Below are positions 5,967-62,330 of a stretch of DNA of 64,000 nucleotides, one piece after another; position 1 is the first letter of the stretch; every line of letters begins with the position of its first letter. This DNA is from a virus: positions 1-64,000 of the IMG/VR virus record IMGVR_UViG_3300042874_000422; one strand, written 5' to 3'. A program made the translations under genes and the position numbers. Under the pieces are notes generated by a model. It worked only from the letters and a program-made list of their open reading frames with translations, had not been told where the DNA came from and searched no databases.

Positions 5967-6275
5967 ATGCACTTGCTCACGCAATGGGAGCAATCTCCCA
6001 CGTACGACCCGTACAACCCGAACCAGATCATCCGAGAGCCGAACAACATCGGCATCCCGGGCGGCGCGTACGGTTCGTTCTACTTCAACAAGCAGCCGAA
6101 CACCGTCAGTCAGGTGCTCGGCGGCTTCAGCTTCGGCGGGCTTCCCCCGTGGGGCCAGGCGTTGATCGTCGGCACGCTCGCGGCCGGCATCGGCTTCTAC
6201 GGCCTGAAGTATGTCGGTCCCAAGGTCGGGCTTCGCGGTCTGGCCGGCCCTCGTCGTCGGCGTAGGCGAACCTGA
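5967..6275 (+). CDS. putative virion membrane protein (single TM, LRGLAG + poly-Arg tail)
   Basis: GGAGG SD; TM ALIVGTLAAGIGFYGL. Confidence 0.75.
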   Translation: MHLLTQWEQSPTYDPYNPNQIIREPNNIGIPGGAYGSFYFNKQPNTVSQVLGGFSFGGLPPWGQALIVGTLAAGIGFYGLKYVGPKVGLRGLAGPRRRRRRT

Positions 6276-6535
6276 TGTCGAACCTCCCCGGGTCCCCGAC
6301 GTACCGGCTGCGCCTTCACACCGGTCCGGTGAAGGAGGCGCGGCGCTCGGTCGCGCGCCAGCTCAAGCGGGCGAAGATCAAGGTCGCCGTCAGCGGCACC
6401 GAGCACGTCTACGCCGACGTCAAGGCGAACAGCTGCGAGGACGCTCAGATGCGGCTCGCCAAGGCGCTCCAGAAGAAAGGTCTGCGTCGGCTGTCGACGC
6501 AGGCATTCTCGACGAGCTGCACGCGGAGGCGCTGA
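6275..6535 (+). CDS. small basic protein
   Basis: TGATG coupling; K/R-rich with Cys pair. Confidence 0.7.
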   Translation: MSNLPGSPTYRLRLHTGPVKEARRSVARQLKRAKIKVAVSGTEHVYADVKANSCEDAQMRLAKALQKKGLRRLSTQAFSTSCTRRR

Positions 6536-6759
6536 TGGCCAAAGCGAAGTGCCACGTTGAATTCGTCACCGGGCGCGGCGGTCCTGCCGCTGTCCTGATG
6601 GACGATCGCGGTCGGTCACTCAACGTGATCAACTATCCCCGCGATCACCACCTCACGCCGAAGGCGAAAACGGCGGCTCGCCGTCGTCTGATGCGCGGGT
6701 GCCAGGAGCTGTCGCGCTCGCTCGGCGGTGCCAAGCGCAAGCGGAGACGCTCTCGCTGA
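6535..6759 (+). CDS. small basic protein (SLGG-AKRKRRRSR tail)
   Basis: TGATG coupling; MAKAKCHVEF start. Confidence 0.7.
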   Translation: MAKAKCHVEFVTGRGGPAAVLMDDRGRSLNVINYPRDHHLTPKAKTAARRRLMRGCQELSRSLGGAKRKRRRSR

Positions 6760-6880
6760 TCATCAAGGGCCGGGCACGCTGCTCTACTACTCGGGCTCGT
6801 GCGTCCGCAGCGACTACAAGACCGGCGATCCGCGCAAGACCGGCAGCCTCGCCGGCAAGCGACGCAAGCGCCGTCGTTGA
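6758..6880 (+). pseudogene. 3' remnant of a basic-protein gene with no good start
   Basis: Frame reads PGTLLYYSGSCVRSDYKTGDPRKTGSLAGKRRKRRR-stop, the same tail type as its neighbours. Confidence 0.55.
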
Positions 6881-6912
6881 TTCGATCTTGACAGCCCTGT
6901 ACGCTCGGGTGC

Positions 6913-7254
6913 ATGGCCAAGCGGATCGACGATAGCCACCAGCCGTTCAAGCGCACGGGCGCGATCGGCCCTGGCCCCAAGAAGCGCCCCAAGCTCCACC
7001 AGGAGCGCGACTGGGAGTGCCAGAAGGGCAAGAACACCAAGACCCACTACGTGCAGGTCTGCACGTACGTCGGCGACAACCGCAAGCGGCGCGGCAAGAA
7101 GGTCAAGGTGCTCCGCTCGAAGAAGTCGAAGAAGAGCTACAACAAGCTCTGGCGGAAGTGGGCCAAGCGCAACGCGCGCATCCAGGCGCTGCAGAACAAG
7201 GGCGCCAAGACCGGCTACCGCTGCCGCAAGACGCCCGCGTCCAGGTGCCGCTAA
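6913..7254 (+). CDS. Lys/Arg-rich basic protein
   Basis: TACGCT-N7-ATG leaderless start; 4 Cys. Confidence 0.75.
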   Translation: MAKRIDDSHQPFKRTGAIGPGPKKRPKLHQERDWECQKGKNTKTHYVQVCTYVGDNRKRRGKKVKVLRSKKSKKSYNKLWRKWAKRNARIQALQNKGAKTGYRCRKTPASRCR

Positions 7255-7577
7255 TGCCGGCGATCATGGCGCTCGAAGGCCCGAAGAACCTCGGCGCGGT
7301 TCGCGTCACGCTCGGTCCGCGTGGTCGCAACGTCGCCACGTCGACGCTCGGGCCGGTCGCGGGCCCGCTCGGGCTCGTCATGCGCGGTCGCGGCGGCGCG
7401 ACGCACACGCTGATGGGCGTCACCGACACGATCAAGGCGCATCCGTGGGCGATCGTCGCCGGCATCCTGTTCGGCGCGTACGCGCTGACCAAAGGCTGGT
7501 CGCCCGGCATGATCTGGGGCGGGCACCAGGCGGCGCACGCTCGCAACAAGTCGCTGCACGGTCGGAGGCGGCGCTGA
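7254..7577 (+). CDS. putative virion membrane protein (TM, SLHG-RRRR tail)
   Basis: TAATG coupling; TM WAIVAGILFGAYAL; repeated LG. Confidence 0.7.
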   Translation: MPAIMALEGPKNLGAVRVTLGPRGRNVATSTLGPVAGPLGLVMRGRGGATHTLMGVTDTIKAHPWAIVAGILFGAYALTKGWSPGMIWGGHQAAHARNKSLHGRRRR

Positions 7578-7897
7578 TGGCGCGGCGCGGGGCTCCAGTC
7601 CGGGCCACGCTGCTCTGCGCGATCAAGTTCTGGTCGATCGACGACGGCAAGACCGCCACGCTGCGTTCGGGCGTGCGCAGCGTCGTGCGCAAGCAGGGAT
7701 TCACACCGGCCGCGATCGATCGCGCCGAGCGTGAGCTGGCTCGCGAAGGCAAGATTCAAGTCGGCGGCACGCGGAGCGGCAAGACGCTCAAGCTGCTCGA
7801 CGACGTCAACTGCTCGACGGTAAAACTCGCGCCGTGGACGGATGACGGTTACCCCGGCGCGTCGCTCTCCGGGCGCCGCCGCAAGCGGAGGCACTGA
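7577..7897 (+). CDS. small basic protein (SLSG-RRRKRRH tail)
   Basis: TGATG coupling. Confidence 0.7.
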   Translation: MARRGAPVRATLLCAIKFWSIDDGKTATLRSGVRSVVRKQGFTPAAIDRAERELAREGKIQVGGTRSGKTLKLLDDVNCSTVKLAPWTDDGYPGASLSGRRRKRRH

Positions 7898-8274
7898 TGG
7901 CTCGTCGTCGGAAAAGCAAAGGGCTCAGAGGGCTCGGGTATCACTCGATCCAGCGGTTCACGATTACCGGTTGTACGCCCAAGCGGGTTTACACCAGTGT
8001 CGTTGACGTCTTACTCGCGGCCAAGCACCGCTCGAAGCGGACGAGCAAGACCTGTAAAGTCTCGCACGGGCTCCCCGGCGCCGAGCGTGAGATCGCGTCG
8101 TGCGCCGACCGCAAGTGCCGCACGGTCAGCGGCAAGGCGATCAGCATGCGCAAGCTCTACGAGATGGAGCAGGGCGCCAAGCCCGAAGCCAGCGGTCACG
8201 GCAAGCGCGGCAAGGCGGTGCGGAACATCCGCGCCAAGGGCGCCCGCAGGGTCAAAGGCAAGCGGGTGTTCTGA
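7897..8274 (+). CDS. basic protein with N-terminal MARRRKSKG-LRGLG leader
   Basis: TGATG coupling; 4 Cys. Confidence 0.7.
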   Translation: MARRRKSKGLRGLGYHSIQRFTITGCTPKRVYTSVVDVLLAAKHRSKRTSKTCKVSHGLPGAEREIASCADRKCRTVSGKAISMRKLYEMEQGAKPEASGHGKRGKAVRNIRAKGARRVKGKRVF

Positions 8275-8489: not shown

Positions 8490-8490
8490 C

Positions 8491-8751
8491 ATGGCGAAAG
8501 CGGTTTGTATCGAACACAAAGGCGGCAAGTGCGTACGATGGCGCATCGGTGGCGCCACGGTCACGCTCGCCGGTCTCGGCGGTCCCCGAGCGTCTCGGAG
8601 AGCGCAGTCATGTGTCTCTCGCGAGATCGCCAAGCACTGCCGGAAGAAACGTGGCAAGGGCTGCAAGATTCCGTCGGTGAGCAAGCAGGCGCAGGCCATC
8701 GCTTACAGCATCTGCCGCCGCAAGGGCTTCCGCTCGATCGCAGCTCGCTAG
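8491..8751 (+). CDS. Cys-rich basic protein (LAGLGG)
   Basis: GAGG SD; QAQAIAYSICRRKG. Confidence 0.7.
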   Translation: MAKAVCIEHKGGKCVRWRIGGATVTLAGLGGPRASRRAQSCVSREIAKHCRKKRGKGCKIPSVSKQAQAIAYSICRRKGFRSIAAR

Positions 8752-22969: not shown

Positions 22970-24079
22970 CTAGCTGCGGCGGCGGCGCCGGACCTTGAGG
23001 ATTTTGGAGACGAGCGTGGCCTTGCCGCCGGCCATCTTCGAAGCTCCGACGATCTTGAGATGCGCCGAGGCGTACTTGCGCAGATCTTCGATCGGCTGCT
23101 CCATCAGCATGGCCGGCGACATGCGGGCGAACTTCGCAGCCTTCGGGGCGGCGGGCTTGCCGGCGGGCTTGCCGGCGACGATGCGGGGCGCAGCTTTGAC
23201 CTCGGTCTTGGTCTTCGCGGGCTCGGGCGTCGCACCGTTGCTGAGCGCGTCGTAGTCGACGGCGGGCGTGTTGTCGTGCTCGTCCTGGTCCTCGCCCTCG
23301 ACATCGCCGCCCCACTCTTCGTCGTCCGCGTCGGACGTATCGACGTCCACCGACATCGTGGTGCTCGGCATGTACTCGCTGTCGCCCGCGCCGGTCCAGT
23401 TGCCGACGACAAGGTACTCGCAGACGCGCATCTTTTGGAACAAGTGATCGTTGGGCACGCACACGACGTGCTCGGGATCGATGCGGCAGATGATCACGCG
23501 CTCGCTGAAGTTGTGAGCGTACTGCAGCGCGCCCACGTGCAGCCCCTGGTGACACGCGGTCGCCGGGTTGTCAGAGATCAGGTTGCGCGCCATCTTCACG
23601 ACGCGACCGGGGCTGTTGTCGATCGTCCCCGAGTGAGCGTCCATGTAGTCGTGCTTGACGCCCTTGTACGCGAGGAACGTGCCGTCCGGCTCGATCGGCA
23701 CACCGACGTGCTGCAGGAAAGCGTGCAGCTGCGTGCGCGACTGGAACGAGGGATTCTTGTGGAGCCGCTCGTAGAACTTGAACAGCGGCTCCGGGCTCTC
23801 GCCAGCCGCCGCCATCGTGAAGATGCGGCGCGACAGCGAGTCCGGCAGCGGGACGCTGTCGTACGAGATCGTGCGACCGTCGACGACGAACTTGTCGCCC
23901 AGCCACTGCTGCAGCGAGCCGCTGAGCGTGACGAGCTTTTCGATGTCGCCCCACTGCTCGTCGAAGATCGCTCGCCGCAGCGTGTGGTACTGCGGCGTGC
24001 CGGCATGCACGGTGTGCGACTTGCCGGTGAGGAGGACGGTGATGCTCTCGTTGGTCATGGTGAACGGGATCGTTGACAT
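22970..24079 (-). CDS. rIIB: rIIB-like protein
   Basis: NPS, DG.FLAYK.V, D.HSG, C..GLHV, VVCVP.D, K.RVC.Y; follows rIIA. Confidence 0.88.
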   Translation of the reverse strand: MSTIPFTMTNESITVLLTGKSHTVHAGTPQYHTLRRAIFDEQWGDIEKLVTLSGSLQQWLGDKFVVDGRTISYDSVPLPDSLSRRIFTMAAAGESPEPLFKFYERLHKNPSFQSRTQLHAFLQHVGVPIEPDGTFLAYKGVKHDYMDAHSGTIDNSPGRVVKMARNLISDNPATACHQGLHVGALQYAHNFSERVIICRIDPEHVVCVPNDHLFQKMRVCEYLVVGNWTGAGDSEYMPSTTMSVDVDTSDADDEEWGGDVEGEDQDEHDNTPAVDYDALSNGATPEPAKTKTEVKAAPRIVAGKPAGKPAAPKAAKFARMSPAMLMEQPIEDLRKYASAHLKIVGASKMAGGKATLVSKILKVRRRRRS

Positions 24080-24204
24080 GGGGCGTGTCCTTTCGTGTTT
24101 GCTGTGGTTGCTGTGCTCGCCGCAGATGCGGCAGCGTGTCGTGAGTAGCTCGTCGGGAATGAAAGCGTGGGACCTGTACCGGGCCATTGGTGATTCGTCG
24201 TCCA

Positions 24205-38626: not shown

Positions 38627-39528
38627 CGACGCTTCGCCTTCGTCACCGAGCGCACGGGCTTACCCTTGCGCTTGGCTGCCGCGACTTTCTTGATGAGGCT
38701 CGACGGGTTCTCAGGCAGCGGCGCGGGCGGCGGTGGCGGATTCGCATTGTACCGTGCGAGTGCGATGATCTGCTGCACCGTCACGATCAGCGGCTTGGGT
38801 GGGTGCTCAGCGTCGTACCAGTCCACGCTCTCCCACATCGGATCGAGCGGTACCGGCACGCCCTCGATGTACTGCACCGACATCACCAGCGAGATGAAAT
38901 GCTGTCCGGCTTTCTCGACGAACGTCGAGACGTAAGGTGCGTGCTTGGACACTGAGACCGCGCCGACGTCGAGGCCGGTCGAGATCTTCACCGCGCGGCG
39001 GATCGCACTCTCGTTCGACTCGCCGACTTCTAGCTCGCCTTCGGGGAGCACGTAGTGCCCACTCTTCTTGAGCTTGCCGAGGAGGACTTTGCCTTGGTGC
39101 AAAATCAGCGCGGCGACCGCGACGCGGACGACGGGCTTGTCGGTCGCATCGATCTCGCCGATCTTGTAGTGCGGCGAGACAGCGCCCGGATCAGCGGGAT
39201 CCGTCGGCCACTTTGTGATGGAGTAGTGCTCGGCGTCTGAGCGATAGAAAAACGTCGCGACCGGCTCCTGGCTCTCGGGCGGTGAAAACACACCGTGAAC
39301 GCGGCGACCGCCGATTGCCAGCTCGGGCGGTTTCGAGCCTATCGTGATGTAGACAGGCTTTCCATCCCCGCCTTTGCCGAGCACGAGCAGCGCGTCATCG
39401 CCTAGTTCTGCGCGGCGTTGCGCATAGGCTTCCGACAGCATGTTGATCGCGAGCGATGGTAGTTTTTCCTGGGCGATTCGCTCAGGTGTGTCGACAGCGT
39501 GCGGGCTGATGCGAATGATCGTCTTCAC
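38623..39528 (-). CDS. Nudix-domain protein
   Basis: LPEGELEVGES.ESAIRRAVKISTGL, a Nudix box with the catalytic Glu residues replaced. Confidence 0.7.
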   Translation of the reverse strand: MKTIIRISPHAVDTPERIAQEKLPSLAINMLSEAYAQRRAELGDDALLVLGKGGDGKPVYITIGSKPPELAIGGRRVHGVFSPPESQEPVATFFYRSDAEHYSITKWPTDPADPGAVSPHYKIGEIDATDKPVVRVAVAALILHQGKVLLGKLKKSGHYVLPEGELEVGESNESAIRRAVKISTGLDVGAVSVSKHAPYVSTFVEKAGQHFISLVMSVQYIEGVPVPLDPMWESVDWYDAEHPPKPLIVTVQQIIALARYNANPPPPPAPLPENPSSLIKKVAAAKRKGKPVRSVTKAKRR

Positions 39529-42106: not shown

Positions 42107-42898
42107 ATGCTGACCAACCGTCCTGCGCGTAACGCAGTCAGTTTCAATCCAGGCTTGCTGATCAACGCAGGGCTCGACGAGGGCGCCGCAGGGCACGTAG
42201 TCGCGTACGCCGCTGCAACCGCTGCTCCGACGACCGTCGTCCGCGCGACAGCATACGTCGAGCCTGCCGCAGCCGCGCAGCTCGAAGTCGTGTCGAGCAA
42301 CGCCAACGACGATGGCGCCCCGGCAGGTACCGGAACGCGGACTGTTCGTATCGTCTACTACGATGGCAGTTGCAACGGTCCGTTCACGACGGATGTCGTG
42401 ATGAACGGTGTGACGGCTGTGCCGACGACACCGACGGACCTACGCTTCATCGAAAGCATCTGCAGTCTCACCGTCGGCAGCAACGGGACCAACGTTGGGA
42501 CGATCACCCTTCGTGGGCTCGGCGGCGGTGCACTGGTCGGGACGATCGCAGCAAGTGACGGTCGAACGTACTGGGGCCACCACTACATTGCGACGGGCCG
42601 CATCGGGCAAATCCTCGACGTGAACGGCGCGTTCACGCTCGCCAAAGGATCGCTCTTTCTACGATCGATCGATGTCCTGACCGCCAACGCTTTCGAGCTG
42701 CAAATCACGCCGCAGCTTCGACTCACCCCCGGCGCGGTTGGTGCGGCAGCGAACCCTGCACCGTTTCAGCCAACGTTGGTGTTCCCGTTCGGGGGCTTGT
42801 ACGTCGCCGGCCCCGCGCGCGTGACTGCATACGTAGACCCGGACACAGCCGTCGCGAACAATGTCGCGTTCGTGGGGTTCAGCTACCTTGATGTTTGA
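42107..42898 (+). CDS. spike head paralog B3
   Basis: SSNAND..AGTGTRTVRI, AGPARV. Confidence 0.75.
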   Translation: MLTNRPARNAVSFNPGLLINAGLDEGAAGHVVAYAAATAAPTTVVRATAYVEPAAAAQLEVVSSNANDDGAPAGTGTRTVRIVYYDGSCNGPFTTDVVMNGVTAVPTTPTDLRFIESICSLTVGSNGTNVGTITLRGLGGGALVGTIAASDGRTYWGHHYIATGRIGQILDVNGAFTLAKGSLFLRSIDVLTANAFELQITPQLRLTPGAVGAAANPAPFQPTLVFPFGGLYVAGPARVTAYVDPDTAVANNVAFVGFSYLDV

Positions 42899-44583: not shown

Positions 44584-45045
44584 CTAACCTCGCTTCTTTC
44601 GGCCACGGATCAAGAGGAACATGCTCAGCACGAACGCCGCGCCGCCTCCGTAGACGGCCCAGTTCGGTAGCCCGAGCCCGAGCAGCCCGGCGCCGATCGC
44701 GTTCTGGTTCTTGAGGATGTTGACCGGGTTGAGCGAGGCGCCTGGCTTTGGCGTGACCGTGATCGCCACCGTTGGCGGGGGCAGCGCGCCTTCGTCGGCG
44801 GCTTGCCCGAGGAACACCGCGAGCCCGGCGGCGCCTGATTTGATCGCCGCGATGTCGATCGCGCCGCTGTCCGTGACGAGCGCGACCGAGAGGCCTGACG
44901 CCGTGTCCGAGCCGATCGCCGCGAGCGCCTTGAACAGCGCCGCTGCCGTGGCCGATCCGATGTTGCCGTCGACGCCGATCGACGTGAAGCCAGCGGACGC
45001 TGCGAAGCGATTGATCGTGGCCTGCAGATCAGTGGCGGCTGACAT
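44584..45045 (-). CDS. peptidoglycan-binding-like protein with C-terminal TM
   Basis: LQATIN...VDGNIGSAT..A; TM + RGRKKRG; TAGCGT-N6-ATG. Confidence 0.7.
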   Translation of the reverse strand: MSAATDLQATINRFAASAGFTSIGVDGNIGSATAAALFKALAAIGSDTASGLSVALVTDSGAIDIAAIKSGAAGLAVFLGQAADEGALPPPTVAITVTPKPGASLNPVNILKNQNAIGAGLLGLGLPNWAVYGGGAAFVLSMFLLIRGRKKRG

Positions 45046-46271: not shown

Positions 46272-46826
46272 ATGGCGCGCTGGCCGACCGCCCCGTACAC
46301 GACGCATCGCACCGGTTGCTATCGATGCCGTCGGATGACGTCGGCCGACGGCGGGTGCGGTGTGAAGGGCTACCCCTGCACGCACTGGGGTGTCGACACA
46401 TTCACGATCGACGGCAGCCGCGATGTGTGGGCGCCAGAGGCCGGCACCGTCGTCGCGGTCGCCAACGGCAGCTCGCCACCATTTTCAGGCTACGGCCCCG
46501 GTATCGTGCTGATGCTGGGCGCGAGCGGCGTCTACCATCTGCTTGCGCATCTCGACTACTCGACGATCGACGTTCGCGAAGGTCAGCAGCTCGCCGAAGG
46601 TGAGCCGATCGCGATGTTCAGCGAGGCATACGGCCACTGCCACTACGAGATTCGTCTGGCGCCGACGGGCCCGTCCGACGTGAACACAGTCGACCCGGTC
46701 GCGTGGCACGCGGGAGCCACCGGCATCACCACCGGCGAGATCGCGCTCATGTTCGTCGCGGGCGTCGTCGGGCTCGCGGGTGCGATCATGCTCGACCGCT
46801 GGCTTGCTGGCGAGCCCGTTGGTTGA
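46272..46826 (+). CDS. M23 peptidase with C-terminal TM
   Basis: HWGVD, AP..G.V, AHL, V..GQ, HCHYE. Confidence 0.85.
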   Translation: MARWPTAPYTTHRTGCYRCRRMTSADGGCGVKGYPCTHWGVDTFTIDGSRDVWAPEAGTVVAVANGSSPPFSGYGPGIVLMLGASGVYHLLAHLDYSTIDVREGQQLAEGEPIAMFSEAYGHCHYEIRLAPTGPSDVNTVDPVAWHAGATGITTGEIALMFVAGVVGLAGAIMLDRWLAGEPVG

Positions 46827-51137: not shown

Positions 51138-52127
51138 CTAATCTTCGGCGACGATCGTCCACGCGCCGCCGGCGGGGCCGACGTTGCCGTTGGTGATGTG
51201 GACCGAGAGATAGTCCGCACACGGGTTGGTGAGCTGAACGTTGACGGGAACGTCTGCGGGGGCGGCGAGCTGTTCGAACGCCTTGACCTCGAAGACAGGC
51301 GTGAACGAACCAACTGGATGCTCGTTGATGTTGCGAATGAGGCCAACGCGGTAATCAACGATCTGCGCCGGAATACCGTCGAAATTGTGCGAGAGGAGCG
51401 AGATGCCGATGCTCTTACGTCCGTAGATCGGAATCATCGCGAAGTAACCCGAGTTACCAGCGCCGAGCCCCCAAAGCCCCTCGCGCGCCATCGCAGCACG
51501 CTTGGTGGGTGGCGAGAACGCGGGCAGCTTGGCGTAGAACTGGAGATGTAAAAACGGCGCTTCTGTCGGCGTGAACGCACCCGTTACGCCGAACATGTTC
51601 GTGAACTGCTGACCTGCGTAGTAGCCGGTCGTCGTTCCGAACTGACCGCCGTGCCCATTCGCACCGACACCCTGGGCCAGATCGTTGTTGGACGGCTTGG
51701 GGCCCCACGGAAACACGTAGGCGGTCCCGGCCTGCATCGCGTCCCACCACGACTGGTTCGCGGTGCCCAGCGTGGGCTCCTTCTGCGTCGCTTGCGAGAA
51801 CAGCAGCGGCGCTTCGCGCGTGATGATGCGCGGGAGACTGACGACCAGCTCGGGGAGCATGACATCAGCCGGCGGGATGTTGAGCGTCTTCAGCCGATCC
51901 CACGTGTACCAGCAACGATCGATCGTGCTGCGCGGGCCGATCGCGACCGCCGCCACCGACGACGGCACTGGACGGCTGCCGGGCGGTGGCCACTGCAGGT
52001 TGATCTCGGGTGTGACAGCGCCCGGCGTATCTGACCGAACGCCCCAGTCCGTGAATTCAAGCTCGAAGACGTCGTTGCTACGCGCGAGCGCGTCTTCGAA
52101 CGGGAAGCTGTGCAGGGATTGAGGCAT
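51138..52127 (-). CDS. putative minor capsid/vertex protein
   Basis: Beta-rich C-terminus; downstream of the capsid candidates; GGAGAG SD. Confidence 0.55.
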   Translation of the reverse strand: MPQSLHSFPFEDALARSNDVFELEFTDWGVRSDTPGAVTPEINLQWPPPGSRPVPSSVAAVAIGPRSTIDRCWYTWDRLKTLNIPPADVMLPELVVSLPRIITREAPLLFSQATQKEPTLGTANQSWWDAMQAGTAYVFPWGPKPSNNDLAQGVGANGHGGQFGTTTGYYAGQQFTNMFGVTGAFTPTEAPFLHLQFYAKLPAFSPPTKRAAMAREGLWGLGAGNSGYFAMIPIYGRKSIGISLLSHNFDGIPAQIVDYRVGLIRNINEHPVGSFTPVFEVKAFEQLAAPADVPVNVQLTNPCADYLSVHITNGNVGPAGGAWTIVAED

Positions 52128-54994: not shown

Positions 54995-55020
54995 AAAAGC
55001 CGCCCACGTTGGGCGGCTTT
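54995..55020 (-). terminator. intrinsic terminator after the capsid candidate
   Basis: AAAGCCGCCC-AACGT-GGGCGGCTTTT. Confidence 0.85.
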
Positions 55021-55059
55021 GGTTGCCGAAGCAGCTACGCCTAAATAGGCGTAATTGCT

Positions 55060-55770
55060 TTAGACAACGCTCCTCTTGATGAGGCCGTAGAGGTACGTCT
55101 TGACGTCCGCGAACGTCAGAGCCGCACCGTTGTCAGCAGCCGCCTGGCTGATGACGATCGGCGCCTCGGGCTGGAACGACATCTTGAAGCCGAGGTTCTC
55201 GCGGAGGTCGATCGGCAGGACCATCGCGTTGCGATCACGGGGCGACGGGACGCCGTTCTGCGCCAGCTCGAATGAGCTGGTCGTGGCGAACACGTAGTAG
55301 CCGTGACCCTGCGGGTAGTCCTGCATCACGCCGTACGTGTAGACCTTCCCGTTGTACGAGAATTCCAGGTACGTCACGCGATCGAACTGGAACAGCGTGT
55401 TGAGGATCGGCGGGGCCGAGAGCGCGCCCGAGCCGTCCGCGAGGACAGGCTGCGTCGGGTTCGCCGTCGGGCCGCGCATGACGCGGACCATCTTCACGCC
55501 GATGCCGTACACGTACATCTCCCACGACTGCGGCAGACCGGAGTCGCCGTTACGGGGGACGTTGGTGTCGACGCGCGTCGAGGCGCGCGTGCCGCCCGGG
55601 ATGGGCTGCGAGCGGCCAGCCGTGAACGCCTCGACCGGCGAGGTCTGGGTGTTCGTGATCTGGACGGTGCTGTAGAGCTTGTCGTCGATCCAGTCGCTGA
55701 TCGCGACCGTCTGCCCGTTGGGCAGGGTGAGGGTCGTGGTTCCGGGTGCTACGCCAACAGTTCCAGCCAT
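55060..55770 (-). CDS. candidate large single jelly-roll major capsid protein (236 aa)
   Basis: AGGAG SD, own terminator, strong codon bias, all-beta pattern (LYST, DTN, GLP, MYVYGIGV, LEFSYNGK, P.G.G, NGVP, LPI.L, YLYG..R.V). Confidence 0.6.
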   Translation of the reverse strand: MAGTVGVAPGTTTLTLPNGQTVAISDWIDDKLYSTVQITNTQTSPVEAFTAGRSQPIPGGTRASTRVDTNVPRNGDSGLPQSWEMYVYGIGVKMVRVMRGPTANPTQPVLADGSGALSAPPILNTLFQFDRVTYLEFSYNGKVYTYGVMQDYPQGHGYYVFATTSSFELAQNGVPSPRDRNAMVLPIDLRENLGFKMSFQPEAPIVISQAAADNGAALTFADVKTYLYGLIKRSVV

Positions 55771-55779
55771 GTCACGTTC

Positions 55780-55975
55780 TCCTGAGAAGAGGGTCTAGGA
55801 AGCCCGAACGTCGGGGGACGTCCCCCTGGGTTCGGTAGGCCGCGAAACACGCGGCTTGGCCGGCTTAAACGGGGTCGAACCGTCTCCTCCCTCGGGCCTT
55901 GAACCTTCGGGTGCTCTCACCGGAGAGCTTGTCAGCCGTCGACACGGGTTGCCCCGTGCGAGCGAGTTGTCAGGG
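55780..55975 (-). ncRNA. structured intergenic leader of the capsid gene
   Basis: Stems CACGGG-GCAA-CCCGTG, GCTCTC/GAGAGC, ACGG-TTCGACC-CCGT, GCCGCG/CGCGGC, GGGGG-ACGT-CCCCC. Confidence 0.5.
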
Positions 55976-55977
55976 AA

Positions 55978-56670
55978 CTAGCGGCTGCCGCCGAGCAAGG
56001 TCGCGCCGTACGCAGCCGACAGACCGTGGATCTGCGGACCGCCGAGGAGCGAGACCTGGCTCGACCGCGAGCTGGGCTGGCCGAGCAAGCTCACGGGAGC
56101 CGAGCGACCGAGTGACGTACCGGCGAAGCCGGGACCCGCAACGCCCGGGATCGTGCCGACCGACTGCGGCTGTGGCGCGATCGACGGGATGCCAAGGCCA
56201 TTCAGGTAATTCATCTTCGGGATGCCGAGACCGTTCAGGTACGTCCCATCAGCCTGACGACGCATACCGAGGCCGTTGAGCGCGTTCACCTGCGCGATAC
56301 CGAGGCCGGCCATCGCGCCCGGCTCCTTCTCGACGGCGGTCTGCACGGCGGCACTCGCCACCGCGACCGGGAACAGGAGCTTCTCGATGTACGAGAGGCC
56401 CGCTGCGAGGAACGAACCAACGACGGAGCCGAGCGCCATCGGGCGCGTCGAGCGCATCGCTGCGAGGAGACCGGAGGTGCCGAGGCCCGCGAGCAGGCCG
56501 TACAGCTCGCGGTTCTTCGCGTTCTTGCCGCCCTGGACGTGAGCGAGCGCCATCGACGTCACGCCTGCGACGCCACCGCCGATGAGCGTGCCGTAAAAGC
56601 TCAGCGGACCAGCGCTGAGACCGAGGCCGAGCAGGTTGACTTCTCCGAGTAGCTTCGCGCGACGGGCCAT
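55978..56670 (-). CDS. multi-TM protein with repeated [LM]xGLG motifs
   Basis: AAGGAG SD; 3 hydrophobic segments; MAGLG, LNGLG x3, LLG x4. Confidence 0.8.
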   Translation of the reverse strand: MARRAKLLGEVNLLGLGLSAGPLSFYGTLIGGGVAGVTSMALAHVQGGKNAKNRELYGLLAGLGTSGLLAAMRSTRPMALGSVVGSFLAAGLSYIEKLLFPVAVASAAVQTAVEKEPGAMAGLGIAQVNALNGLGMRRQADGTYLNGLGIPKMNYLNGLGIPSIAPQPQSVGTIPGVAGPGFAGTSLGRSAPVSLLGQPSSRSSQVSLLGGPQIHGLSAAYGATLLGGSR

Positions 56671-56684
56671 TGACGTTCTCCTTG

Positions 56685-56867
56685 TTATCGAGTCGGGTTG
56701 GAGCAGCTACCGGTGAACACCAGCCCGCTGCGATGCTTCTTGCTCTTGGGGACTCTGCAGATCTCGACGCCGCGCTTCGTTCGCTTGTTGAACACGCAGC
56801 GACAGTCGGTGCGCTGAACCGGACGTTCCCCGACGCCGGCCAACGTCATGACGTGATTCTTCGCCAC
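56685..56867 (-). CDS. small basic Cys-rich protein (LAGVG leader)
   Basis: TAGTG overlap; 4 Cys. Confidence 0.6.
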   Translation of the reverse strand: MAKNHVMTLAGVGERPVQRTDCRCVFNKRTKRGVEICRVPKSKKHRSGLVFTGSCSNPTR

Positions 56868-57352
56868 TAACCGTTCCACCAACGGTTGGTCCACTGGTGC
56901 CAGCTCGTCTCGGCCTGCGAGCGAGCGTAAGCGTTCGGCAGACCACCACCCTTGAGGAGATGGGCGACCATCTGCTCCTTGGCGATCATCTGCGGCGCGA
57001 TCTCCTCGCCGACCTGCGGGTAGCCCGCGCCCCAGCCGGGCTGGATCATGCCGCCGGCGCCGATCGCGTGCATCCGCTCCATCGGAAGCGCCTGGAGGAC
57101 CTGCTTCTTCGCCTGCTTCTTCGCGCGCCACGCGGCGAATTGCAGACGAATGCGATCGATGACGCCGACACCGCGAAGACCGCCGAGACCGTTGGTCTGG
57201 AGATCCATCGGGTACTGCGTGAACGACGCCGCCACCGACTGGACGTCGGCATTCGGGTCGTAGCCGATCGCCGGCTGGAGGACGCTCGTGCGGTAGACCC
57301 TATCGGGCCTGACGTAGTGCGAGGTGCCCCCATGCCGCGTGATGATCTGCAT
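56867..57352 (-). CDS. putative virion protein (NGLGGLRGVG)
   Basis: TACACA-N6-ATG; first gene of the capsid operon. Confidence 0.7.
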   Translation of the reverse strand: MQIITRHGGTSHYVRPDRVYRTSVLQPAIGYDPNADVQSVAASFTQYPMDLQTNGLGGLRGVGVIDRIRLQFAAWRAKKQAKKQVLQALPMERMHAIGAGGMIQPGWGAGYPQVGEEIAPQMIAKEQMVAHLLKGGGLPNAYARSQAETSWHQWTNRWWNG

Positions 57353-57514
57353 GGTTCATGTGTACCGACGTAGACGTAACTAAGCAATATTGTTAAAGAA
57401 CTTAGAACAGCAGATCACATGAGGCTTCATAACACCCTGAAAGATCGTTCCAAGCGCCCGCGCTTGATCAATTCTTTGATCTGTCGTTCGGAAGGTGCGA
57501 CAGAACGTAGACAC

Positions 57515-58054
57515 GTGCGAACCGTGTATTTCCTGTCGAACAGCGATCTCTCGCGCGTGAAGATCGGCAAAGCGACACGAACTTCGACACGGGTTCGCGC
57601 CGTTCAGGCTGGGTCTGCCGAGCAACTCTTACTCGTGGCCGAGGTCGACGGCTACACACACGTCGAACGCTGGTTTCACGATCGCTTCGCGACACGCCGA
57701 ATCCACAACGAGTGGTTCGTAGTCGACGACGAGCTTGGAAAAACAATCGCAGAGATCCAGCGCGCAGGGCGCGGCGCGAGCAGACATCTTTGCCCTGATG
57801 CTTTTGCGAAAGATCTGCCGCCACAGATCAACGCGCACACGAAACTGACACCCGAGATCGTCGAAGAAGCACGCTGTCGCTACGATCGCGGAGAATCGAT
57901 CACGGCGCTGATTCACCGCTTCTCGGCGATCAAGCCGCTCGATCTCAGTCGGGCGGTGTTCGGGCTCACCTGGCAACAACTGGCGCCGACGACGCGAAAA
58001 CCACCTGACGATCTGCGTCGGTTGCTTCAGGGCAAGTATCGTAGAGTCTCGTAG
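57515..58054 (+). CDS. GIY-YIG (T5orf172-like) nuclease with C-terminal HTH
   Basis: VYF, VKIG, R...Q.GS, E..FH.RF, EWF; start uncertain. Confidence 0.8.
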   Translation: MRTVYFLSNSDLSRVKIGKATRTSTRVRAVQAGSAEQLLLVAEVDGYTHVERWFHDRFATRRIHNEWFVVDDELGKTIAEIQRAGRGASRHLCPDAFAKDLPPQINAHTKLTPEIVEEARCRYDRGESITALIHRFSAIKPLDLSRAVFGLTWQQLAPTTRKPPDDLRRLLQGKYRRVS

Positions 58055-58056
58055 CC

Positions 58057-58593
58057 ATGATGATCCTCAATCCGACGACCGCTGCTGCCGTGGTGCTGCA
58101 CGCGAGCGATGGGGTGTGGATCATGTTCCTGCAGTCGACGGCGCCCTGTGATCCGTACGGCCCAATCATGATCGAGAGCACGATGCGGGAACGGCTCGCG
58201 GCTCGTTTGACAGATCTCAACGAGGACAACGCCTACGGTCTCCGATTGATCGGTCTGATGCCGGTGAACGACCCCAAGAATGTCGACACCGTCTTGGAGG
58301 CGTTCGACGCCTACCGGCTGCACGATGCGTGGTTCGCACCGAACGCCGAGCTTTTGGCGTTCATCGCCGAGAACGCCCAAGACGCGATCTCGTTGCTCCT
58401 GGCGCAAACGCGGCCCGGCGCGCTCCCTGACGCACCGATCATGATCAACGAAATGGCTGACATCCTCGGGGTCTCGGTACCGACGGTGCGGCGCATGATC
58501 AAGCTGGAGGAGATCCCGTTCCTGAAGTTCGGCCGAGTCTACCGTTTCATCGCCGCCGATGTTCTCGCGAGCCTAGAACGACGCCAGCGGTAA
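58057..58593 (+). CDS. degenerate T5orf172-like domain fused to an excisionase-type HTH
   Basis: F...RL..AWF; EMADILGVSVPTVRRMI..EIP..KFGR.YRF. Confidence 0.7.
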   Translation: MMILNPTTAAAVVLHASDGVWIMFLQSTAPCDPYGPIMIESTMRERLAARLTDLNEDNAYGLRLIGLMPVNDPKNVDTVLEAFDAYRLHDAWFAPNAELLAFIAENAQDAISLLLAQTRPGALPDAPIMINEMADILGVSVPTVRRMIKLEEIPFLKFGRVYRFIAADVLASLERRQR

Positions 58594-58619
58594 CCGCACT
58601 GCCGCGCTGCCGGATCCTA

Positions 58620-58892
58620 CTACTTCAGAATCGCCGCGAGCCCGCCGAGAACGCCGAGACCGAGCGCGGCCACGGTGCCGACGACAATCCACTTGCGATT
58701 CTTCCACCACCATGAATCGAACATCGCGTTAGCGGCGTCGATCGGGGCGTCCATTGTACCGCCGAGGTAAGGGCCGACCGGCTGCGCCGTCGACTGCGTC
58801 ATGCCCGGCGGGAACCGCATGTCGGTGACCTGCGGATTCATCGCGGGATCCATGTTGAACTGCCACGCTGGGATGAACCCGAGGTTGTTCAT
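58620..58892 (-). CDS. tail-anchored membrane protein
   Basis: TAAGCT-N6-ATG; MNNLGFIPA; C-terminal TM. Confidence 0.7.
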   Translation of the reverse strand: MNNLGFIPAWQFNMDPAMNPQVTDMRFPPGMTQSTAQPVGPYLGGTMDAPIDAANAMFDSWWWKNRKWIVVGTVAALGLGVLGGLAAILK

Positions 58893-58906
58893 GGCGTCAG
58901 CTTACA

Positions 58907-59221
58907 TCACTTCGGTTTCGCGAAGCCGGGCTTGCGAGCGATGGCCACGATCGGCGTGAACACCGGGAAGAGCCCACCCATGAGGAACCACCACACACCC
59001 CAGCCAATGCTGCCGTGGTTGCGCTTGATCCCGTGGTAACCACTCGCGCCTGCTGACGCGAGCGCAAGGAGCCCCCAGATCGTGTTCTTTGTGATCTTCG
59101 ACGAGTCGACGATCGGCGGTGCGTCGGTGACGACAGGTTCAGCACTGAGGTGACCGAGCCCGTTCAGCCCGTACAGCCCATGTACACCGGTCATCCCGCG
59201 CAACGCTTGCAGATTCAACAT
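58907..59221 (-). CDS. membrane protein with an xxG-repeat leader
   Basis: LRGMTGVHGLYGLNGLG; YHG.KRN.GS.GW. Confidence 0.75.
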   Translation of the reverse strand: MLNLQALRGMTGVHGLYGLNGLGHLSAEPVVTDAPPIVDSSKITKNTIWGLLALASAGASGYHGIKRNHGSIGWGVWWFLMGGLFPVFTPIVAIARKPGFAKPK

Positions 59222-59239
59222 GCGTCGATGATGCCGCTG

Positions 59240-59932
59240 CTACGCGGGGAAGTCGAGAGCCTCGGCGTAAGGGACCTCGACCGCGTACTTGTTGCGGCCG
59301 GGTAGCGTCGTGTCGAGCGCGACCCACTTCGACGGGCCGTTCTTCGGCAACCCTGCGAGCGGGAAGATGTGCGACCAGTCGTCGCTCTTGCTCTCTTTCA
59401 TCACGCGAAGGCGCGGCGTGATGCCATTGAGCGCGAGCAAGGTCGCGATCAGCACGCTCTGGTCGTCGCAATCACCGCCGCCGAATTCCAGCGTGCGCCG
59501 CGCGCTCTGATAAAGGTCGATACCCTCGACGTCGCCGTTCGGGAACTTGATCGGCGCGACATCGCCCGTGTACCGGACGTTGTCCTTGACGAAGTTGTAC
59601 ACCGCACGCGCCTCGCACTCACCATCGCGCTCGGGGCACTGCGACGTGATCTTGAGTGCGAGCTTGCGCATCTCCGGATCTTGCACCGACTTGTGGACGA
59701 GTTTCTGGATCGACGCGAGGCGCTCTTCGATCGGCATTCCTTCGCTGGCGCGAAGCGTCGTTCGCATGTTGCCGTCGGAGTAGCCGTCGATCGCCGGCGC
59801 CTCTTCGTACCGCTTCGACATGAAACGTACACGTCCGAGGCTCGCCGTCTTGCGCTGACGGTAAATGAAGTACCCGCCAAGGAGAGCGACACCGAGACCA
59901 ACGAGGCCCCATTGCTTGCGTGACAGCGCCAT
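59240..59932 (-). CDS. membrane-anchored transglutaminase-like cysteine protease
   Basis: VYNFVK.NVRY..D, GDCDD, SHIF, W.ALDTT (Cys-His-Asp); N-terminal TM. Confidence 0.85.
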   Translation of the reverse strand: MALSRKQWGLVGLGVALLGGYFIYRQRKTASLGRVRFMSKRYEEAPAIDGYSDGNMRTTLRASEGMPIEERLASIQKLVHKSVQDPEMRKLALKITSQCPERDGECEARAVYNFVKDNVRYTGDVAPIKFPNGDVEGIDLYQSARRTLEFGGGDCDDQSVLIATLLALNGITPRLRVMKESKSDDWSHIFPLAGLPKNGPSKWVALDTTLPGRNKYAVEVPYAEALDFPA

Positions 59933-59971
59933 TGGTCCTGACGGTATCACGCTCTATGTTAGGCTCGCGAT

Positions 59972-60370
59972 ATGCTCCAGTTCTCCCCTCTTGGCTCCGT
60001 GTCCGATGACTACGTGGATTGCTTGGCCGAGGGTGGAGATGCGGACGTCTGCCGAGAGCTGCATCCGCCGACACCTGGCGCGCCCACGACCTCGCCGATC
60101 ATGACGGCGGAAGAACAGCAGATCGCTTCGAGCCATGCGTGCGACGTCTGCGACCCGAACACGCAGTGGTGTGACGGCACGACGTGTATCCCGTTTACCG
60201 TCGAAGAACAGGCTAAGTGGGCTGCTGTCGGAAAGCCGCCCGAGCAGATCGTCGTTCGGGCGAGCCCGACCCGATCGCTCATCCCCGGTGTTTCCAACAC
60301 GACGCTCGCGATCGGCGCGGCCTTGCTCGGGCTGGGTGTCATCGCCTACAAGCGCACGCGCCGAGCGTGA
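59972..60370 (+). CDS. Cys-rich tail-anchored membrane protein
   Basis: TAGGCT-N6-ATG; MLQFSPLG leader; TM + KRTRR. Confidence 0.75.
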   Translation: MLQFSPLGSVSDDYVDCLAEGGDADVCRELHPPTPGAPTTSPIMTAEEQQIASSHACDVCDPNTQWCDGTTCIPFTVEEQAKWAAVGKPPEQIVVRASPTRSLIPGVSNTTLAIGAALLGLGVIAYKRTRRA

Positions 60371-60401
60371 TAGCCTACGTTCCAAGGAAGGTGAAGAAGA
60401 C

Positions 60402-60764
60402 ATGATTACGATGAACGGACTCGGAGCAGGCGGCGATAACTGCGACCCAGCAACGTCGTGGTACCAGTCCGACCCGAACATGGCGTACTACGGGAGCTGC
60501 ATCCCGTTCGCCGGCCTTCCCGGCTCAAGCTCGACCGGCCCCGCGCCGACGACGCAGACGACGGCAGCGTCTCCGTGGTGGGGCTCGCTCCTCACCAGCC
60601 TCACGTCGGGCGTGGTCAAGGGCATCGTCGGCAACGACGGTCAGCCCGCGACTCCGACGATGCCGCCGCCCAGGATGCCGCCCACGCCGTGGTACGCAAC
60701 GCCGACCGGCATGATCGGCATCGGTGTCGGTGCGGTCGCGCTGATCTTCCTGCTGAGGAAGTAA
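60402..60764 (+). CDS. tail-anchored membrane protein (MNGLG leader)
   Basis: TM + RK. Confidence 0.7.
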   Translation: MITMNGLGAGGDNCDPATSWYQSDPNMAYYGSCIPFAGLPGSSSTGPAPTTQTTAASPWWGSLLTSLTSGVVKGIVGNDGQPATPTMPPPRMPPTPWYATPTGMIGIGVGAVALIFLLRK

Positions 60765-61018
60765 TGCTGGCGGTCTCACCAGCAAAGCAACCGCTCGCCG
60801 GGATTCTCGATAACTTCATCGACTCAGTCACCGGTAGAGCCGTCTCCAGCGCGACCACCGCCGCACAACCGCTGCTCGACGACGTCGAGCGACGAGTCAA
60901 GGCGCTCATTCTGCCTGTGGTCTTCTTCACCGCCGGTAGCTTCTTGATCGGGCTACTCACGTACCGCGAAGTGGCCAAGCGATCGAAACCGGTCGCGGGA
61001 CTCCGAGGGCGCCGATGA
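60764..61018 (+). CDS. membrane protein (LAG; VAGLRGRR tail)
   Basis: TAATG coupling; TM. Confidence 0.7.
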   Translation: MLAVSPAKQPLAGILDNFIDSVTGRAVSSATTAAQPLLDDVERRVKALILPVVFFTAGSFLIGLLTYREVAKRSKPVAGLRGRR

Positions 61019-61314
61019 TTCTCCTGAACCCGAACGTTGGCGTTGCGCCAGGCACCACGACCATGCAGCTCGGCGAAGCGTGCGCGCCGGATCCGATCGA
61101 GCCCGAGTCGCCGTTCACGCAGATGGTCACGACGTACGCGCCGTCGTCGACGACACTCGACACCGGCGTGGAGCTGTGGATCCCGTACCAAGACACCGTT
61201 CGCTTACGTGGGCTCGGTGAGATTGCGCCGCCGCGCTGGGGGCTCGTGCTGCTCGCCGGACTCACCGCGTTCGGCATCGTGCTCGGATTGCGACGTTGGC
61301 GCGCCAAGCGTTGA
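61015..61314 (+). CDS. tail-anchored membrane protein (LRGLG before the TM)
   Basis: ATGA overlap; VGVAPGTTT shared with the capsid candidate. Confidence 0.75.
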   Translation: MILLNPNVGVAPGTTTMQLGEACAPDPIEPESPFTQMVTTYAPSSTTLDTGVELWIPYQDTVRLRGLGEIAPPRWGLVLLAGLTAFGIVLGLRRWRAKR

Positions 61315-61332
61315 GCGTGATACCGTAGCCGC

Positions 61333-61776
61333 ATGCTCGGTTTCATTCCCGCGCCGATGGGCCAGAAGGTCCCCGGGCAGTACCCGAATCAGATCCAGTA
61401 CAGCTACGGCGGCGACGGTCACTACCTCTGTCCCCCGGATCCGCGGTTCAACCAGCACGGCGAGATCGGGATGTACTACGACACGCCGCTCGGTGGCCCA
61501 CAGATCCCGACGGACGCAGAGCTGGCGACCGTCTACGGCCGGACACCGGTCGCGAGCGCGTGGATCACCGCCAAGGAAGGCTACTTCCCGTCGCCGTGGC
61601 GACCGCCGGGCGGCTGGAACCCCGCTGGCGCATGGGGCCCGCAGCCGAGCTTGGGCGCTGCGCCCATGATCTTCTACAAGTTCGGCATGTCGCCGCTACT
61701 GTGGGGGCTCGTCGCGGGCGCGGGCGGGCTCCTCTGGTGGATGACGCACAAGACCAAGCCGCGTCGGAGGCGTTAG
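61333..61776 (+). CDS. Pro/Gly/Tyr-rich tail-anchored membrane protein
   Basis: TACCGT-N6-ATG; SLG before the TM; RRRR tail. Confidence 0.75.
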   Translation: MLGFIPAPMGQKVPGQYPNQIQYSYGGDGHYLCPPDPRFNQHGEIGMYYDTPLGGPQIPTDAELATVYGRTPVASAWITAKEGYFPSPWRPPGGWNPAGAWGPQPSLGAAPMIFYKFGMSPLLWGLVAGAGGLLWWMTHKTKPRRRR

Positions 61777-62016
61777 ATGCTGACGCTCGGGCTCGGTGAT
61801 CCCGTCGATCTGACGTTGCCAGAAACGGCGACGGCGACCGAGACACAGGCTGTGATCGCCGCGCTCAACGCGCACAACGATCGTGTTTTCAAGGTCACGC
61901 TGATCTCGACGATCGTTGTCGGGCTCGCAGCGGCGCTCAACACGCTGCGCACGTTCCGCACCCTTCAGCGCGAGGAAGCGCGCGAGATGGCTCTCTTAAA
62001 AAGGCTCAAGAAATAA
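61777..62016 (+). CDS. membrane protein (MLTLGLG leader)
   Basis: Single TM. Confidence 0.7.
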   Translation: MLTLGLGDPVDLTLPETATATETQAVIAALNAHNDRVFKVTLISTIVVGLAAALNTLRTFRTLQREEAREMALLKRLKK

Positions 62017-62330
62017 TGGCGAAGCAAGCGGCTCTCCCGACGTACCGCACTGCCGCTCGCGTTCTTGAGGGCGAAAAGGGTTCGGGCATTCGCCTCGCCG
62101 GCTGGACAGTCGCCCGCACGCTCATGATCGCACCGCCGATGATGATCGTCGGTGTTCCGATCCGGCAGGCGTTCACAGGCGCGGCGCTCTCGTCAGCGCT
62201 GATCAGTCTGTTCACGGTGATCCGCCTCTTCGATGCACGGCAGACCGGCATGGCCGGGCTCGACTATGGCAAGCAGATGGCCGGGCTCACTCGTCGACGG
62301 CCGGTTCGCCGGCGCTCTTACGCAAGGTAA
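62016..62330 (+). CDS. membrane protein (MAGL x2 + Arg-rich tail)
   Basis: TAATG coupling. Confidence 0.7.
   Translation: MAKQAALPTYRTAARVLEGEKGSGIRLAGWTVARTLMIAPPMMIVGVPIRQAFTGAALSSALISLFTVIRLFDARQTGMAGLDYGKQMAGLTRRRPVRRRSYAR

Follow-up and report, generated by a model that had tools for sequence, protein, structure and literature searches.

The adenovirus protease adenain (MEROPS C5, clan CE) cuts at (M/I/L)XGX-G and (M/I/L)XGG-X sites in pIIIa, pVI, pVII, pVIII, pX, and pTP. Among phages, T4 gp21 cuts after L/I-x-E and the proteases of phiKZ, 201phi2-1, and SPN3US (gp245) cut after A-x-E, with capsid-targeting propeptides; maturation of T4 and giant-phage heads involves motif-directed trimming of many proteins, self-cleavage of the protease, short and long propeptides, and several motifs per propeptide (PMC10052503). 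LapG and DvhG are site-specific proteases that cut an Ala-Ala motif in LapA and DvhA, and for DvhG a transmembrane (TM) helix is predicted as the membrane anchor (PMC10990149). Here, we analyzed a short peptide motif, [LM]xG[LV]G, that recurs in proteins encoded by positions 1-64,000 (the window) of the virus record IMGVR_UViG_3300042874_000422 (77,539 bp, 64% G+C), together with a membrane-anchored transglutaminase-fold enzyme encoded beside many of its carriers. An earlier note on this DNA had described the motif as an adenovirus-like maturation-cleavage code of a sort unknown from bacterial viruses at such a scale; the systems of T4, phiKZ, and SPN3US (PMC10052503) had already provided precedents. 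Our findings suggest that, in this family of large viruses, which are uncultured and apparently lack tails, the motif (general form Phi-x-G-[L/V/F]-G, mostly L-x-G-L-G) acts as a family-specific short linear recognition signal. We take its carriers to be components of the virion module, among them one protein that crosses the membrane several times, small proteins with a membrane anchor, and others that are small, basic, and rich in Cys.

The motif is far more frequent than composition predicts. A codon-usage model gave 130 genes, to which we added the small open reading frames at 56685 and 8491; in this set, [LM]xG[LV]G occurs 20 times in 15 proteins. The first 130-gene model held 18 matches in 13 proteins, compared to 2.6 +/- 1.6 in per-protein shuffles (maximum of 8 in 400). 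Shuffling within chunks of 10-30 residues, which preserves local composition such as that of TM segments, gave 3.0-3.7 expected matches, and none of 500 shuffles reached the 20 observed. So that the test did not rest on a motif picked post hoc, we scored all gapped patterns with four fixed residues. L.GLG was the top-ranked pattern of the proteome (14 observed versus 1.12 expected, Poisson p 2e-11). Given that GL.GL ranked second (11 observed versus 1.12 expected, in 10 proteins), the fuller form of the motif is G-L-x-G-L-G. G[LV]G lacking L/M at position -2 is depleted (12 observed versus 21.5 expected).

Both whole-protein and local shuffles thus reject an artefact of composition. Paralogy of the carriers was rejected as well, as the 15 proteins have no significant pairwise similarity. 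An origin at the DNA level was likewise dismissed: in this genome, Leu preceding Gly is generally encoded by CTC (76% across x-L-G contexts of any kind), and GGNCTCGG shows no frame independence. L-x-G-L-G is a protein-level signal. Its boundaries are narrower than the earlier note had drawn them, since SLxG, SLGG, SL[SHA]G, L.G[LV]A, and L.[SA]LG all occur at chance frequency, while GLRG and MAGL merely echo the core motif.

Every core instance listed previously is present (in the proteins at 7897, 61015, 8491, 55978, 58907, 60402, 56685, and 56867), and additional matches were found in those at 30414, 42107, 44584, 51138, 59240, 60101, and 67280, as well as LLGLG and LAGLG in 55978 (Table 1). 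Their distribution departs from the genome-wide one that had been described: 13 of the 20 matches are confined to a 6.5-kb block at 55.9-62.4 kb that accounts for 8% of proteome residues, where they occupy eight of 15 genes. This block adjoins or holds a jelly-roll-like capsid candidate and the transglutaminase-fold enzyme. The claim that the motif marks small basic and membrane proteins and spares replication enzymes holds in its second part, with no match in nine replication enzymes, but TM-containing proteins as a class show no enrichment. Nor does the motif usually sit at a boundary with a basic peptide or leader: a basic peptide adjoins it at a minority of sites, its bias toward N-termini is only ~2-fold, and three to four copies lie in or at TM helices.

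Table 1. Positions of the motif carriers, the enzyme, and other features discussed in the text (window numbering, which equals genome numbering; nt, nucleotide positions).
Gene or feature	Positions (strand)	Product	Motif copies and other sites (nt)
59240	59240-59932 (-)	230-aa membrane-anchored enzyme, N-terminal TM helix, Transglut_core; candidate protease	LVGLG at start of TM helix, 59891-59905; TASLG in juxtamembrane linker, 59834-59848; C155, 59468-59470; H188, 59369-59371; D207, 59312-59314
55978	55978-56670 (-)	230-aa multi-pass membrane protein, six tags	LLGLG, 56620-56634; LAGLG, 56479-56493; MAGLG, 56299-56313; LNGLG, 56266-56280, 56224-56238, and 56191-56205
56685	56685-56864 (-)	59-aa basic Cys-containing protein, N-terminus ...MTLAGVG	LAGVG, 56829-56843
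56867	56867-57352 (-)	161-aa protein with NGLGGLRGVG	LRGVG in variable linker, 57164-57178
58907	58907-59194 (-)	95-aa protein, C-terminal TM helix	LNGLG at residue 10, 59153-59167
60101	60101-60370 (+)	89-aa Cys-rich protein ending LLGLG-VIAY-KRTRRA	LLGLG inside C-terminal TM helix, 60323-60337
60402	60402-60764 (+)	120-aa Cys-containing protein, C-terminally anchored	MNGLG at residue 4, 60411-60425
61015	61015-61314 (+)	99-aa protein, C-terminal TM helix and RRWRAKR tail	LRGLG, 7 residues before the TM helix, 61204-61218; VGVAPGTTT region, 61015-61080
7897	7897-8274 (+)	125-aa very basic protein, starts MARRRKSKG-LRGLG	LRGLG, 7924-7938
8491	8491-8751 (+)	86-aa basic Cys-rich protein	LAGLG at residue 26, 8566-8580
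44584	44584-45045 (-)	153-aa protein, C-terminal TM helix and RGRKKRG tail	LLGLG directly before the TM helix, 44671-44685
51138	51138-52127 (-)	329-aa beta-rich protein	LWGLG, 51462-51476
42107	42107-42898 (+)	263-aa protein	LRGLG inside conserved stretch, 42509-42523
30414	30414-32210 (-)	598-aa protein outside the module	LRGVG, 31662-31676
67280		carrier beyond the 64-kb window	motif match
55060	55060-55770 (-)	236-aa all-beta protein, untagged; capsid-protein candidate	N-terminal arm, 55743-55770
Peptidase_M23 gene	46335-46826	Peptidase_M23 protein	M23 domain, 46383-46658
rIIA-/rIIB-like genes	22970-26286 (-)	rIIA- and rIIB-like proteins	
Walker A gene	71837-73405 (-)	522-aa protein	
phrog_15528 match	38623-39528		
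Terminal repeat	1-127 and 77413-77539	exact 127-bp direct repeat	

To assess conservation, relatives were retrieved with the 236-aa protein encoded at 55060-55770, yielding 15 IMG/VR contigs (L002-L016; 60-80% identity) and three contigs from metagenome-assembled genomes (MAGs). Across the 15 related viral contigs, the motif is kept at aligned sites in five or more protein families, within variable linkers and leaders. The last four tags of 55978 form tandem ~11-residue units, LNGLG[IM]Pxx[RN]A, and two to four such units are found in 10 of 11 subgroup-1 homologues. In subgroup 2 (L009, L010, L015, and L016), L-x-G-L-G is absent from the sub-lineage and G-F-G occupies the corresponding places of the 55978 family. 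Each of these four contigs is enriched in GFG, L010 and L016 most strongly (10-12 observed versus ~2 expected). Because the change from GLG to GFG occurred in parallel across several proteins, it points to one shared reader.

Other families show the same persistence of the tag amid variable surroundings. Homologues of 56867 carry L[AS]GLG, LQGLG, or LRGLG at the aligned site, with flanks of varying length. Two of its orthologues (L011 and L012) have an extra N-terminal leader before the conserved start, which terminates with LLGLG in the former and with a degenerate LLGD in the latter; orthologues without the leader start level with the residues just after the tag. The 56685 family was found in eight genomes, and its gene in the window lies between genes for tagged membrane proteins. 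In relatives, its seven homologues all start with M-[TS]-L-x-G, which six continue with x-G (L-x-G-x-G), followed by a basic, Cys-containing core with CKCV.N.RTK in most members. In the 58907 family, the tag is kept in L005, and most other members have L-x-(G)-L-G within the first 10-25 residues. LRGLG of 61015 is kept in L012, and the L011 homologue has LNGL..LRGL plus an extra LNGLGGLG. The tag of 44584 is partly kept in L007 as LFGLN. In several families not represented in the window, the proteins open with "ML..." leaders, short and variable, whose last residues are Phi-x-G-L-G. Overall, enrichment of the motif recurs in 11 of 15 related loci (5-9 observed versus ~1 expected), and L.GLG was again the top pattern in L011, an independent relative (9 observed versus 0.38 expected, in eight proteins). 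At least two matches appear to stand apart from the signal. LWGLG of 51138 is kept in none of six homologues and is probably a chance match, and LRGLG of 42107, whose surrounding stretch GTITLRGLGGG is also found in L016, is probably part of the fold.

The enzyme encoded at 59240 is the most likely reader of the tag. Pfam assigns its residues 91-207 to Transglut_core (PF01841; E 7e-7, 29.9 bits versus a cut-off of 23), and its AlphaFold2 (AF2) model has a predicted local distance difference test (pLDDT) score of 84. Among the structural neighbors found by Foldseek, the putative cysteine proteases 3isr and 3kd4 come on top, followed by TglA, PNGase, LapG, CPR-C4, and PeiP. Residues C99, C106, C155, H188, and D207 are invariant in 119 aligned homologues, and the triad is invariant in a set of 15 homologues as well; as judged from the sequence and the model, the enzyme has a transglutaminase-type fold with an intact Cys-His-Asp triad. 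In L008 (3617-5290 (+)), an intein of ~330 residues interrupts the enzyme gene exactly at the catalytic Cys (GGD|C), a placement implying that this site is functionally essential. All 15 related loci carry the enzyme gene, and a large protein collection contains 420 homologues.

The enzyme is itself tagged. G-L-x-G-L-G is kept at the start of the TM helix in its homologues, and in the linker that follows the TM helix and an RxRK cluster, G31, L32, and G33 are kept in 66%, 86% (F in 8%), and 93% of the 119 homologues, respectively, within a stretch that is otherwise variable and modeled with low confidence. No residues of the catalytic domain were found to co-vary with the linker L or F. A predicted complex of enzyme residues 38-230 with residues 112-172 of 55978 scored 0.00, which gives no verdict and was not used as evidence.

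[quoted passage not shown] SSIP-1 is a tail-less internal-membrane phage with two capsid protein types (PMC6356626). Its gp34 lacks the N-terminal TM helix and the G-L-G linker, and the SSIP-1 proteome contains no motif match, no other enriched analogue, and no gene shared with the studied genome besides gp34.

The capsid candidate, 55060, is the most conserved gene of the block, with 60-81% identity in 18 relatives; a 176-aa protein is a further capsid candidate. Its AF2 model is poor (pLDDT 51, too low for a firm fold call), and viral jelly-roll capsid proteins lead and dominate its weak matches (Foldseek E >= 0.06; VIA Z <= 6.4). The protein begins with a nearly invariant N-terminal arm, MAGTVGVAPGTTT.TLP, whose VGVAPGTTT peptide is copied at the N-terminus of the small, C-terminally anchored 61015 family, a copy seen in 10 of 15 related loci. 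As read from these sequences, this looks like mimicry of the capsid arm that could tether the membrane to the shell.

We tentatively favor the view that the tag is a maturation cut-site code read by the transglutaminase-fold enzyme, including release of the enzyme itself at its own linker, although we hold this at somewhat short of an even chance. The membrane-anchored Cys155-His188-Asp207 enzyme would then act as a maturation protease that reads the motif and cuts. It would free itself at the G-L-G of its own linker and, during particle assembly, trim neighboring gene products: their short leaders at the N-terminus, their linkers beside the membrane, and the tandem LNGLG units. The cut could fall in the register L-x-G-L|G, as in adenain type 1 sites, or G-L-G|x, with Leu or Phe in a papain-type S2 pocket. 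In favor of this proposal are the enrichment of the motif, its unrelated carriers, their clustering, conservation of the tag, the GFG switch, the presence of the enzyme in 15 of 15 loci, its invariant triad, and the G-L-G kept in its own linker. The fold kinship to LapG and DvhG, the L008 intein, the structural annotation of SSIP-1 gp34, and the optional leaders add to these points.

Several observations weigh against it. The copies inside or at the start of TM helices (the first site of 59240, those of 60101, and the second of 55978) are unreachable by a soluble active site. With their even spacing, the tandem LNGLG[IM]P units resemble an array for multivalent binding more closely than they do cut sites, and the bias of the motif toward N-termini is slight (~2-fold). 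SSIP-1 has an enzyme homologue and no motif, so enzyme and motif are not obligatorily linked. Wall hydrolases (PeiP) and amidases (PNGase) share the fold, so service as a virion entry lysin would be no less ordinary for the enzyme. Applied here, the positive-inside rule may place some tagged ectodomains on the other side of the membrane from the enzyme domain.

Compared with adenovirus, one short code, with a hydrophobic P4 and Gly at P2, is likewise found on many unrelated virion proteins, small basic ones included. L-x-G-L-G formally matches the type 1 pattern, and the 56685 family carries L-x-G-x-G near its N-terminus, as do pVII and pX. However, the order Cys-His-Asp is of the transglutaminase/papain type and not that of clan CE, P1 is limited here to L, V, or F, and cleavage is putative. 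(M/L/I)xGG is not enriched (26 observed versus 23.8 expected); (M/L/I)xGxG is (38-40 observed versus 24 expected), with the entire excess coming from the L-x-G-[LV]-G subset. Our Pfam and PHROG searches covered 115 proteins, with Pfam families accepted at E <= 0.01; no clan-CE protease was found among them, and PF00770 and PF02902, searched against all six frames, had no match at E <= 1. What stands of the proposed adenovirus likeness is therefore a code recognized in trans that is conserved, recurs in relatives, switches to GFG in concert, and accompanies an intact, tagged Cys enzyme; a clan-CE protease and the (M/L/I)xGG form do not belong to it. Because the enzyme is of a different clan, the resemblance to adenovirus maturation would be convergent.

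The phage systems differ in other respects. T4, phiKZ, 201phi2-1, and SPN3US are tailed and have HK97-fold capsids, serine proteases of another fold, and a motif ending in Glu, whereas most carriers here are membrane proteins and no portal, terminase, or prohead-protease family is detectable. Neither Pfam (115 proteins) nor the strongest PHROG hits revealed an S77, S78, U35, or ClpP-like prohead-protease system. LapG and DvhG (BTLCP) share the fold class and triad of the 59240 enzyme, but the likeness is at the level of fold only (Foldseek E 4e-4 to 2e-3, 14-19% identity). They are cellular and calcium-dependent, and each has a single substrate with another motif: the recurrent motif here is L-x-G-L-G and not the (T/P)AAG di-alanine site of BTLCP substrates. 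The BTLCP profile did not match the enzyme, for which hmmscan at E <= 0.05 returned Transglut_core only. Double-glycine leaders are 15-30 residues long, follow LSxxELxxIxGG, and are cut by the C39 papain-like domains of ABC exporters. They resemble the tagged leaders in being short, N-terminal, and ended by small residues, with a hydrophobic residue at -4 and a papain-type Cys protease. Unlike them, the motif here is also internal and tandem, and no C39/ABC protein that would couple cleavage to export is encoded. Our literature search found no paper on this virus group and none describing this pair of tag and enzyme.

The main rival to a cut-site code is that the tag is never cut and serves in docking or assembly, binding one shared pocket, whether of the capsid shell, of a scaffold, or of a membrane organizer, and so recruiting membrane and core proteins; the enzyme would then be merely another tagged virion component, such as an entry lysin. 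We consider this possible but rather unlikely, even though an uncut tag accounts for most of the same data. Analogues are the cargo-loading peptides of encapsulins and the capsid-targeting sequence of T4 before it is trimmed. Encapsulin peptides (e.g., of the LTVGSL type) remain uncut, are usually C-terminal, and bind HK97-fold shells; like the tag in this model, they are short Gly/hydrophobic peptides at the termini of unrelated proteins that dock inside a shell, but the partner pocket here is hypothetical. Conservation of the 11-residue LNGLG[IM]Pxx[RN]A units as wholes is typical of multivalent binding, the positions of the tag are mixed (N-termini, linkers, and before TM helices), and the VGVAPGTTT peptide common to the capsid candidate and the N-termini of the 61015 family suggests that the virus reuses short, apparent docking peptides. 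The parallel switch from GLG to GFG is compatible with any shared reader, SSIP-1 gp34 is structural in a virus without the motif, and the wall hydrolases within the enzyme's fold suit a lysin. Against docking, the binding partner would be hypothetical, and the capsid candidate is modeled too poorly for a pocket search. A hydrophobic P2 or P4 within a small-residue motif is classic for cysteine-protease sites, the enzyme's own linker holds the tag, and tagged leaders are optional among orthologues, as expected of removable propeptides.

The remaining explanations are all improbable to us. That the motif has no common reader, and reflects Gly/Leu-rich membrane-protein composition, small-residue helix packing, and a few chance matches, has some basis in the three to four copies in or at TM helices, the unconserved site of 51138, and the site of 42107 buried in a conserved domain. 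It was largely refuted by the pattern scan, by the local shuffles (3.7 matches with 10-residue chunks versus 20 observed), and by the recurrence of the motif as top pattern in the independent L011; moreover, TM-containing proteins are not enriched as a class, and hydrophilic linkers and leaders hold most of the conserved sites (LRGLG and LNGLG). A signal for sorting or transpeptidation, read in the manner of sortases or exosortases as motif, hydrophobic helix, and basic cluster, with acyl-enzyme transfer to an amine of a capsid lysine or phosphatidylethanolamine, is very unlikely. Transglutaminase-fold enzymes act via thioester intermediates and acyl transfer, three proteins (44584, 60101, and 61015) end in motif, TM helix, and basic tail, the N-terminus of the enzyme reads GLxGLG, hydrophobic stretch, and RQRK, and three of its homologues bear the automatic JGI annotation "LPXTG-motif cell wall-anchored protein". 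However, a TM helix and basic tail follow only a minority of tags (12 other carriers differ), no Gln/Lys pattern accompanies the motif, Pfam found no sortase, exosortase, or rhombosortase family in 115 proteins, and the reading is reached purely by inference. Equally unlikely is its most novel version, in which a sortase-like transpeptidase would join the new C-terminal Gly of membrane and core proteins to capsid lysines or phosphatidylethanolamine; if true, it would be a virus-encoded sorting and ligation system with its own signal code, stitching together shell, membrane, and core. Cleavage by a protease other than the transglutaminase-fold enzyme seems to us the most improbable of all. Phage proteins are sometimes processed by host proteases, and the genome encodes a protein of the Gly-specific metallopeptidase family M23. 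An M23 homologue lies within +/-10 kb of the module in none of 15 relatives, compared to 15 of 15 for the transglutaminase-fold gene, M23 enzymes cut Gly-Gly or Gly-Ala bonds that are not in the core motif, and the parallel GFG switch argues for a virus-encoded reader.

If the tag is cut, it would be the first maturation-protease code described for the tail-less, membrane-containing type of bacterial virus. A transglutaminase-fold enzyme would then do what serine proteases do in tailed phages and clan-CE proteases do in adenoviruses, poxviruses, and giant viruses, which would make it a convergent answer. Should it serve in docking and stay uncut, it would represent a portable peptide for particle loading, likewise of use. 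The family is abundant in metagenomes, with 420 enzyme homologues and genomes of 77-138 kb with terminal repeats, and the tag offers a means to list probable virion components from sequence only, as well as a simple peptide substrate for the enzyme.

The exact 127-bp direct terminal repeat (Table 1) indicates that the genome is complete at ~77.4 kb (CheckV rating of 73%), and three viral relatives with terminal repeats are likewise complete (85, 86, and 138 kb). Megablast of window stretches 1437-4466 and 55000-62400 against known phages gave no match. Pfam searches of the 115 proteins and the strongest PHROG hits revealed no terminase, portal, HK97 capsid, tail, prohead protease, or adenain family. 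One PHROG "portal" hit (phrog_15528, on gene 38623-39528) was dismissed, being a partial match to a profile that also matches 14 of 14 control cellular genomes. Because a complete genome without tailed-phage genes is combined with weak jelly-roll matches, the gp34 link, and many small TM proteins, a tail-less, membrane-containing particle is plausible. If the relatives are such phages, sizes of 77-138 kb would be very large for this type. No FtsK/HerA-type packaging ATPase family was reported by Pfam among the 115 proteins. A 522-aa protein (71837-73405) that carries a Walker A motif, GTQGSGKT, and matches neither a Pfam nor a PHROG family could, judging by that motif, be a packaging ATPase or a primase-helicase.

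The genome encodes replication proteins identified by Pfam and PHROG (a PolA-UDG fusion, an SNF2 helicase, Sak4, a PD-(D/E)XK exonuclease, and endonuclease VII), along with ThyX, dCMP deaminase, RNA ligase, Dam methylase, and an integrase. Two wall hydrolases are encoded, a GH25 protein with PG_binding_1 and the Peptidase_M23 protein. The rIIA- and rIIB-like genes were detected with PHROG E values of 6e-90 and 7e-58. Such genes are classically found in T4-like tailed phages; here, they coexist with no detectable tail, portal, or terminase genes. One relative (L019; CP070815.1, 3,705,222-3,725,920) lies inside a 4.7-Mb Gemmatimonadota MAG chromosome, where it is probably integrated, and an integrase is present in the studied genome too. 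Other hits (L017, L018, and P0003) are in bins labeled Actinomycetes, Polyangiales, and Tepidisphaeraceae.

Many module proteins of L002-L016 begin with Met-Leu and a short variable leader (e.g., MLLSTP, MLTFG, and MLFTQHNG), including 17 of 100 genes in subgroup 2; these starts may be an additional N-terminal signal or an effect of start context. No homologues of 7897 were found in five related complete or near-complete genomes. Together with 56685 and 8491, this basic protein is a possible DNA-condensing core protein. An EncFtn-like (encapsulated-ferritin-like) domain protein (E 8e-10) is encoded in the left half of the window, and a Thioredoxin_2 protein (E 5e-10) within 37-72 kb. Many small ectodomains have paired Cys residues, which suggests disulfide chemistry in assembly.

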